A stretch of DNA of 22,313 bases. Source: a virus. Lineage: Duplodnaviria; Heunggongvirae; Uroviricota; Caudoviricetes. A program made the position numbers. The stretch's first letter is position 1, and each line of letters begins with the position of its first letter. Location: the IMG/VR virus record IMGVR_UViG_2703718793_000012; one strand, written 5' to 3'. Shown here in pieces: positions 1,078 through 4,000 of this stretch.

Positions 1078-4000
1078 TTACATATTGTTTTCTTGTTGTG
1101 ATCAAAAACAACAAATTAATAACAAATAATGTGAGGGATAAGAATTGGGTTGAAAGGAAATGAATAATTAAAACAATATATTAAGTGTGCTTATACTCTT
1201 TTTCGAACTGGTGGCATTTGTTTAAATGCTATTTAAACTGCTTTTTCAGAGTTCAACTTACTGAGTTCCGTGTCGACTAATGTGAGTAAGATCAATCGCA
1301 TCCAACCTATGTTACTTGATGGAATCGATAACAATATTAATGAATATACAGATTCCGGGAAGGCTGGCTATGGGGGCAAATTATTCTCTTTCTGGCAACG
1401 GGTAAATAACAGTGACCATTTGTCGAGAAGCTGATACTGAGCTGAGGGATACTGTATATGTCTTGACTGTAATTGGATGAATTCTATTCAGGGCGGGTCA
1501 GGACCAATAAAAAAGCCCGCTGATGCGGGCTTTAATGTCATAGGGAGTCGCGACTCCGTTGCGTATCCTTTTTTGTCTCCTCACCGTCTGGTCGGTGTTC
1601 TGCTGAGACTTATAACTTCCTGTTTTTGTTGGTGTAGTCCTTACACCGTCCAATCATGATTGGTGGAGCTGGCGGGAGTTGAACCCGTGATCGTGATTAA
1701 TCCAATTTATTGAATATGAACGATTTATTTTTTCAAACAAGGAATTATGTGCATTTTACGTACATATTGTTGTCCCTGTAACGTCCTGATTCTGTACAAC
1801 ATTTTGAAATATTTTGCCGTTACGGGGCTGCAGAAATCGCCGTTTTTCCATCGTATTCTGCAAGGTAAGAGCCGTAATGTCTGAACAGCATTTCCGGTCC
1901 TTTATGCCCCATCTGACCAGCAAGCCAGAACAGGTTAACGCCCTGGCTAATGTGCCGAGTGGCGAACGTATGGCGTGTCTGGTACGGATTGCGATAGCGT
2001 ACACCAGCCTTTTTAAGGGTCGGCACCCAGGCTTTTTTTCGGATCGCGTCCGCGTTTGCCCAAGGGGCGCGAGTTTTTGGATCGCTGAATATAAAGTCGC
2101 TTTTTAGCGCCGTGTAGGGCTTTTGTGCCTGAAGAGCCGCCAGCGCTTCGCTGTTCAGTTGTACTTTGCGAGTGCCGGCTTTTGTTTTGGTGCTTTTGAT
2201 TACCCCGACTACACTTGCAGTCTGGACATGCGCTGTGTTGCCGATGAAGTCTATATCTGTCCAGCGCAATGCGCACAATTCCGAGCTGCGCAGCCCGGTA
2301 TTAAAGGCGAAGCGAAATAGATTTCGCCATTCCGGGTAATGACAGGCGTCATAGATTGCTGCTGTCTCCGCTGGTGTAAAGGGATCGACCTCGTAATCAT
2401 CACTGCCTGGTGTGCTGTCTAATACGTGATATCGGCTGGCGCTGACTAGCGTGACAGGATTTATTGTTAACAAACCATCGGTCACCGCTTCATCTATGGC
2501 GCTGCGCAGAAACGAAAGATTATTGCGGATCGTTTTCAGTTTTGTTTTTCTGCTGGCGATCCAGTTTTTTAGTACTGCAGGTGTCAGTTCTGATACATGA
2601 AATTTATGCAATGCTGACAGCGCCGACAGGCATTTTTCATAACCTCTAATTGTCGATGGTGACAGGTTACGGTTCTGGCAGATAATCAGATATTCATCTA
2701 GGTAAGATTTTATATTTTTGTTTTTTTTCACTCCCCCGAACAACTTCAGCTTTTGGGAGTTGGGGAAGTATTTTGCATATTCGAAGGTACCATCGATAAT
2801 CTGATTTTTTATTTCTCCCAGCAGACGCTCGGCGTACTTCACACCGCGCGCGTTTACTTCCATTCTGGAGAGGGGCTCCCGACACAGAACCCCTTTATAT
2901 GTAAAAGTGATAACCAGAGTGCTATCAGTTTTATGCTGCCGAATAGTTACTCCTCTAGGGAGAGATAATGATCCTTGTTCTTTCTTGCCCATTTTGTAAT
3001 CTCCATTAAGTCGACCCAACGTTCTTTAACCCCGTCGACTTTTAATACATGTACCCCTTCTTTCCATATTCCTCTTTGTATCCGTTTGTTAACGGCATCA
3101 ACCGTTTCTCCCGCGTTGCGGCAGTAGGTTGATATAGGTACGCAATCCAGCCCCAAAGTTCACCTCACACAACACTCAGCCCACGGCAGTGGCACCACAC
3201 TTCAAACATTCGTTTCACAATTTCACGACAGTAGAAACCGTCAACATCTCGTGTCAGGTCATAGCGATTGCCGTAACGCTGGTGGACCCATTGTTCAAAT
3301 GCTTTATTCATTCTTTACTTCCTTTTCATGGCCCGTAATTTTTTCAGATGAGCTTCCTGTTCTGTTTCTGCCAGAATTTGTCGGTATTCCTGGTGATTGA
3401 TTCGTTCAAACAGTTCATTAAAATCGTTTATTTTTACCGACAGTGTTCTCCCATCCATTCTTCTGTACAACACAGTGTTGTTTATGCAGCGAATAATTTT
3501 TATCGGGTAGCCAGCACTATCGGTGTATATCTGACCACGTTGAATCAGAGCGAACATTCCTTTATCCCCAGCGGAAAAGCGAATACAGAATAAATGCCAC
3601 CGCTATTGCAACTCCTACAGCGGTGAATGCTTCAGGCCAATTCATCATTTCACCTCCACGCCGATCCCGGCAATAACACAATCCCGTTTGATAGCTTCTT
3701 TCACCCAGCGTTTATAGGTTTCCAGATGGAATTTTGCGCTTTTTCCGGTACCGCTCCAGAATGCCTTTGATGTGGTATCGGGCAGGGTGATGGTCAGGCC
3801 TTTCTTCTTGATGTCTCCAGAACTTTTGCAAAAATTTAATGCGTCGCGTAGTTCTTTAACGCACGCATAGTTTTCTGCTTTCTCTGGATCGCCGGTACGG
3901 TGTTCAGCTTCTTGTCTGCACCATTTGATGACTTTCTCAGCGGCTGCGTGGAGACGCTGACGTTGCCAGTCGTATGTGTCGACCAGCCCATATGCGTGAT

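Follow-up and report, generated by a model that had tools for sequence, protein, structure and literature searches.

A displaced ssrA 3' end beside csiD as the very probable integrase-side junction of a Stx2f-converting prophage

Organization of the locus

The window, i.e., the whole stretch of 22,313 nt analyzed here (IMG/VR virus record IMGVR_UViG_2703718793_000012), opens with csiD/glaH (positions 1-978, minus strand), the first host gene past the junction described below, with glaH annotated at the matching position in A36 and Trh52. It is followed by the remainder of the ssrA-csiD intergenic region (979-1502), which includes the csiD upstream region, by an intrinsic terminator (1503-1533, minus strand) and by a tract corresponding to the native ssrA 3' trailer (1534-1660, minus strand). 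A 27-nt copy of the ssrA 3' end occupies 1661-1687 (minus strand), and a phage-derived arm (1688-1819, minus strand) fills the space between this core and the stop codon of an integrase gene.

The integrase gene (1820-2992, minus strand) encodes a tyrosine integrase of 390 aa, assigned to PHROG 1 (integrase), in which the Pfam domains Arm-DNA-bind_2, SAM-like and Phage_integrase cover residues 12-79, 104-180 and 206-373. This arrangement of an N-terminal arm-binding domain, a core-binding domain and a catalytic domain is that of a heterobivalent integrase. The structures of lambda Int and Tn1549 Int could both be aligned with the protein, which contains the motifs RHTF and RHY, and at the motif level GLRSSEL, TRHTF and GH...RHY were visible in the alignment to Tn1549 Int. 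The start of int is overlapped by a gene for a 69-aa excisionase (2947-3156, minus strand), identified through PHROG 2917 (excisionase, E 1.5e-40) and annotated as such in a related prophage.

The arm at 1688-1819 was 100% identical in Stx2f prophages with differing downstream flanks. Divergence from ssrA begins right after 1687, and positions 1688-1698 contain only a degenerate continuation of the similarity (6 of 11 bases). Within this arm, a repeat common to both attP arms was found at 1747-1792 (plus strand), containing GTGCATTTTACGTACATAT and two GTGCAT/GTACAT-type half-repeats about 11 nt apart. It recurs as a direct repeat in the far arm of this phage, the two copies lying at -111..-84 and +86..+114 from the core, and its length was about 28 nt by k-mer matching and 46 nt when extended by nhmmer. 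The segment was the best match in the window for a profile of the far arm (nhmmer E 0.003), its far-arm counterpart lies at L007 28120-28165 in STECUZB006, and the repeat is kept in A36 and in phage LMessi. Altogether, these features suggest that 1747-1792 is a candidate binding region that may hold arm-type Int sites.

Further into the window, the late region carries the genes for the A and B subunits of Shiga toxin 2f (16180-17415, plus strand; stxA2f at 16180-17139 and stxB2f at 17152-17415), recognized through the Pfam families RIP and SLT_beta and through 100% nucleotide identity to annotated stxA2f/stxB2f. The presence of both genes identifies the element as a Stx2f-converting prophage. 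Two tRNA genes, a lysis cassette, an HNH endonuclease gene and terminase genes are also present.

A displaced copy of the ssrA 3' end

A search of the whole window located TGGTGGAGCTGGCGGGAGTTGAACCCG once, at 1661-1687 on the plus strand and with 0 mismatches. It corresponds in reverse complement to tmRNA nt 337-363, CCA included. The minus strand reads CGGGTTCAACTCCCGCCAGCTCCACCA, with which E. coli tmRNA ends; these 27 nt comprise four of the five bases of the 5' T-stem, the T-loop, the 3' T-stem, the 3' acceptor strand, the discriminator and CCA. The same 27 nt end the annotated ssrA genes of Trh52 (L005 5683-5709), A36, STECUZB006 and K-12, whose 3' ends are identical. None of 100 dinucleotide shuffles matched TGGTGGAGCTGGCGGGAGTTGAACCCG with up to 3 mismatches permitted, and the window held no second copy of the core at this same tolerance.

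The remainder of the tmRNA gene is absent from the window, because ARAGORN found no tmRNA gene there; a scan with Rfam at its gathering threshold also returned none. Rfam did report a 5'-truncated tmRNA match whose last model position falls at base 1661 (17.2 bits, E 1e-4). The core and int share the same orientation and are separated by 132 nt (1687 to the int stop at 1820, minus strand), and the gap between the core and csiD/glaH is 682 nt. The sequence-only reading had proposed an exact 27-nt copy of the tmRNA 3' terminus with CCA, 132 bp past the int stop in the same orientation, lacking an upstream ssrA body and about 680 bp from csiD, and all of these points were borne out.

The host side of the junction

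In E. coli Trh52 (O84:H7) and in FHI_NMBU_03 the gene order is gabT-gabD-lhgO-glaH, then 682 bp, ssrA and smpB, which represents the unoccupied site. Window 1-1687 aligned to Trh52 as one block with 99.8% identity that ends at 1687. The window was also aligned, as attR, with attB from Trh52 and with attL, taken from the ssrA-proximal end of the A36 prophage. In this three-way alignment, the window followed attB to the left of and across the 27 nt, and attL followed attB across and to the right of them. On their respective other sides, attR and attL diverged from attB immediately, i.e., the flanks are swapped at the core. The tract shared with the empty site and the tract shared with the prophage overlap in the 27-nt core only.

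The host trailer directly downstream of the mature tmRNA end, which reads ATCATGATTGGACGG..., is contiguous with ssrA in empty sites. Such contiguity of ssrA with its native trailer, which marks a site free of insertions, was observed in 2528 of the 5426 complete E. coli genomes, and positions 979-1660 were found in one piece in 1100 of the 5426, with 99.9% identity in Trh52. These comparisons identify 979-1660 as the native ssrA-csiD intergenic region. The backbone in which ssrA is followed by csiD without the islands of K-12, which the earlier reading had advanced as an inference, is thus real and common, occurring in Trh52, FHI_NMBU_03 and this share of complete genomes.

The K-12 chromosome has counterparts of the host flank only for window 1-1176, including the 979-1176 part of the intergenic region, and for 1510-1675. 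The K-12 copy of the latter follows the ssrA fragment 'psaA' that lies after CP4-57, and is itself followed by ypjA. About 33 kb separate ssrA from glaH in that strain (CP4-57, ypjA, pinH, ypjBC, ileY and ygaQ). As a separate observation, window 1177-1509 is a 333-nt AT-rich segment with no counterpart in the ssrA..glaH interval of K-12, where about 10.6 kb (ypjA, pinH, ypjB, ypjC, ileY, ygaQ) stand in its place.

The phage side of the junction

From 1659 to its end at 22313, the window was nearly or fully identical (99.995-100%) to the Stx2f prophage of STECUZB006, which is one of three complete genomes whose Stx2f prophages match at about 100% identity, the others being 377323_2f and 2015C-4136CT1. 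The comparison with STECUZB006 gave 1 mismatch in 18,677 nt and 0 in a further 1,728 nt, and the only gap corresponded to 250 consecutive N in the window.

This run, at 20336-20585, stands for 460 nt at the junction of the terminase small and large subunit genes of STECUZB006. It hides both terminase genes in part, and the list of open reading frames consequently misreports both. A 210-nt terminase deletion relative to STECUZB006 was considered and rejected as apparent only, the 250 N reflecting either masking or a gap in the assembly.

The prophage extends beyond the window, and its far end, together with an intact ssrA, is known from the nearly identical prophage of STECUZB006 and the related one of A36. 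The STECUZB006 prophage continues with head and tail genes, cdtABC and a dinI-like gene, and then reaches an intact ssrA that adjoins smpB. The core at this ssrA end (L007 28231) consists of the same 27 nt and lies about 41.6 kb from the core on the int side. An intact ssrA with this core delimits the far end of the prophage in all three of the complete genomes. In A36, the related prophage sits exactly between glaH and ssrA, in the order csiD-flank-core-int...prophage...ssrA-smpB. By analogy with these identical or related prophages, the source genome of the window would be expected to carry an intact ssrA and a second core. Additionally, the attP of phage LMessi, a free relative, is contiguous, with these 27 nt flanked by a tail-side arm on one side and a related int on the other. 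The published Stx2f phage phi467 was also considered as a model for attP and was set aside, since its int region matched at 84.5% only and its int appeared to be split in the annotation; an ssrA core beside int was not visible in the stretch of phi467 that was read.

The exact Int protein is widespread, occurring in 1070 index blocks. Amongst the loci that were read, the sequence beyond int and the core fell into at least five different contexts, namely csiD (L014, L021), a ypjA-like gene, tandem P4-like integrase islands, IS1 and gabD. Two of these loci, L014 and L021, are draft contigs that start inside the prophage and do not extend to its far end; L014 has the same csiD junction as the window and differs from window 1-5992 by 1 mismatch. 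Homology to the window started at 1659-1661 where a tandem island follows, and at 1510 or 1530 where the native flank is kept. These homology limits in varied contexts indicate that the mobile unit ends at the core.

Interpretation of the junction and a model of integration

Taken together, these data leave little doubt in our view that 1661-1687 is the attR identity block of a Stx2f-converting lambdoid prophage integrated in the 3' end of ssrA, at the int-proximal junction. It is a displaced 27-nt ssrA end and the sole segment common to the homology with the empty site and with the prophage. The earlier proposal that an att core was duplicated by integration into the ssrA 3' end was upheld by the empty site, the three identical prophages and the topology of A36.

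The model best supported by these observations would start from an attP that contains the 27-nt ssrA end. The heterobivalent tyrosine Int (1820-2992) would recombine attP with the identical stretch of ssrA, which serves as attB. At the far end ssrA would be rebuilt from a host-derived body and a phage-derived terminal part comprising the last bases, the 3' trailer and the terminator. The host's own 27 nt would be displaced by about 41.6 kb and come to lie beside int, and the native trailer and terminator (1503-1660) would move with them, as would the csiD intergenic region. The crossover presumably takes place within this 27-nt identity; a plausible position is the 7-nt T-loop (AGTTGAA), flanked by the CGGG/CCCG stem. 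Excision would be carried out by Int with the adjacent excisionase (2947-3156) and, given the exactness of the displaced copy, would yield wild-type ssrA and a functional tmRNA.

The fragment could instead be the scar of an older, unrelated ssrA island which the present prophage, using a different attachment site, merely adjoins. In favor of such a history, ssrA is a hotspot in which elements form tandem arrays, several of them have left displaced fragments in E. coli, such as psaA after CP4-57 in K-12, and islands with P4-like int genes abut the same phage elsewhere. However, identity to the prophage starts exactly at the core (1659-1661) in unrelated flanks, in STECUZB006 the identical prophage terminates at an ssrA that carries this core, LMessi, a free relative, contains the core beside int within its own genome, and homology to the empty site stops at 1687; we therefore regard a scar as extremely improbable. 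It is also unlikely, if less so, that the junction belongs to a decayed and immobile prophage remnant in which the att core is a fossil and no longer a working recombination site. Such decay would be in line with the A36 attR core, which lacks 4 nt, with the L013 locus, which lacks part of the core and the csiD-lhgO tract, and with the unreadable 250-N stretch in the terminase region of the window. Against it, the core of the window is exact, int and xis are full-length open reading frames, and over 18.7 kb (1659-20335) a difference of 1 nt separates the window from copies residing in other strain backgrounds, a closeness that speaks for very recent mobility. In one published case, moreover, in-host transfer of such a Stx2f phage between strains was inferred (PMC11597368).

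A further question concerned the hairpin between the core and csiD. According to the scan, TTTTATTGG is preceded on the minus strand by a hairpin at 1533-1512 with a stem of 9 bp, 6 of them G-C pairs, and a loop of 4 nt, and the RNA fold reached -16.9 kcal/mol (z = -3.9 against shuffles). The sequence-only reading had placed a strong minus-strand terminator at 1509-1530; the terminator is real, and its position is corrected by about 3 nt to 1512-1533. The same reading had it guard csiD against transcription from the prophage, and a prophage-borne insulator would indeed be compatible with a strong hairpin and T-run located downstream of int on the same strand. A prophage-borne element of this kind is very improbable, as the hairpin is host DNA. 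In the empty sites it lies equally far from ssrA, and it is also present in K-12 beyond CP4-57, there with a compensatory stem change (GCCCAC...GTGGGC), and homology to the prophage ends at 1661, 128 nt short of it. About 125-130 nt past CCA, the far arms of LMessi, A36 and STECUZB006 have their own, different hairpin. Because it is found in empty sites and in K-12, beyond the end of prophage homology, the hairpin and T-run at 1503-1533 are identified from these comparisons as the host's own ssrA terminator, parted from its gene by the inserted prophage and moved along with the attR flank. The displaced terminator may plausibly now also end transcripts running in the direction of int ahead of csiD; any such insulating effect would be incidental, a by-product of its role as the ssrA terminator.

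Relation to known elements and significance

The ssrA gene is the typical site of Stx2f phages, and published accounts of Stx2f prophages place cdtABC at the prophage extremity and assign the unrelated integrase genes beyond it to neighboring elements (PMC11597368, PMC10673567). The prophage in the window shares stx2f, the integrase and the ssrA site with the Stx2f prophages described at ssrA in E. coli and E. albertii in these reports. It differs from them in its downstream host context only: in the three complete-genome copies a tandem P4-like integrase island follows, whereas in the window the core leads directly into the native trailer and csiD.

The tDNA islands of the Islander database are recognized by a regenerated target gene together with a displaced fragment, and include tandem arrays with the tmRNA gene enriched as a target (PMC4383910). 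With these islands the prophage shares a displaced 3' fragment in gene orientation (1661-1687, minus strand), a tyrosine integrase inside the element (1820-2992) and an identity block that starts from the T-stem. An unoccupied site is available in relatives (Trh52, FHI_NMBU_03), the target gene is regenerated at the other end of the STECUZB006 and A36 prophages, and a gene fragment within the attP of a free element was observed for a relative, LMessi. Nothing essential sets the window apart from these islands, and it represents a standard case.

The cryptic prophage CP4-57 of K-12 provides a second point of comparison, as it is likewise integrated at the 3' end of ssrA and its displaced fragment, psaA, is followed by the same native trailer and terminator. 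In CP4-57 a P4-like integrase lies beside the regenerated ssrA, whereas the prophage in the window has a different integrase at the end with the displaced fragment. The K-12 fragment is also shorter and lacks T357, while the copy in the window is exact across 27 nt. Kirby et al. (1994) reportedly described CP4-57 at ssrA of E. coli K-12, and T-stem and 3'-end sublocations, as well as heavy traffic at enterobacterial ssrA, are said to have been set out by Williams (2002, 2003). Excision of CP4-57 inactivates tmRNA (PMC10107115); excision of the prophage in the window, unlike that of CP4-57 in K-12, should leave a functional tmRNA.

The lambda Int/Xis system offers a more distant parallel, with a heterobivalent Int, an adjacent excisionase, an int gene oriented toward att and repeats on both attP arms, the arm sites in the window being predicted. 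Sequence similarity between the two integrases is weak (E ~3e-5, partial). The identity block is 15 bp in lambda, in contrast to 27 nt in the window, where the target also lies inside an RNA gene.

Altogether, the junction is an ordinary Stx2f prophage end at a well-documented ssrA site, and is in this sense already known; current understanding of ssrA as a textbook integration hotspot and documented Stx2f phage site is unchanged. What is provided here is the exact location of the prophage end and the demonstration of a simple ssrA-csiD host backbone. This information can be utilized for annotation, for the design of junction PCR assays for attB, attP, attL and attR, and for tracing the spread of the phage. 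Additionally, near-isogenic strains with an empty site exist, their flank being 99.8% identical.

Additional observations

The native trailer (window 1570-1640) is collinear with the far attP arm (L002 21830-21900, L008 1110-1180) at equal distance from CCA, and both contain the motifs GTCTGGTC(A/G)GTGT and CTGTTTTT(A/G)TTG. Local and global alignments of the trailer with far arms were significant for A36 and LMessi (z 3.9-7) and gave no significance for the Stx2f far arm, and nhmmer gave E 0.35, so that the statistical case is weak. Both the trailer and the far arm run for about 130 nt before a hairpin. These resemblances could tentatively be read as common ancestry of the trailer/terminator (1503-1660) and the far attP arm, as a relic of an ancient integration, or as a host-like arm kept for 3' processing of the regenerated ssrA, although the probability that we attach to this suggestion is rather low.

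Several variants of the junction were noted in other genomes. The A36 attR core (L001 ~20765) lacks 4 nt (TGG----GCTGG), and psaA of K-12 (L010 23473-23486) is without T357. To judge from these sequences, excision from the decayed A36 or K-12 fragments would damage tmRNA or be blocked, whereas the copy in the window is intact. In the draft genome of L013 (GCA_043607765.1 DAZGYI010000010.1), gabD follows the same int and homology to the window starts only at 1672, a configuration that we read as a deletion affecting the trailer, csiD, lhgO and some of the core. The terminator loop at 1520-1523 is TGAT in the window and in Trh52 and its reverse complement, ATCA, in A36 (L001 ~20622), with identical stems, a difference that has the form of a hairpin-loop inversion in A36.

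Amongst the cargo genes, cdtABC (cytolethal distending toxin type I) and the dinI-like gene of STECUZB006 lie just inside its ssrA-proximal end (L007 25502-27958), and the source genome may likewise carry CDT on the same element, outside the window. The two tRNA genes of the window, tRNA-Thr(TGT) and tRNA-Gly(TCC) at 17929-18082, are located downstream of stx2f and upstream of the holin gene; in classical Stx1 and Stx2 phages, tRNA genes precede stx.
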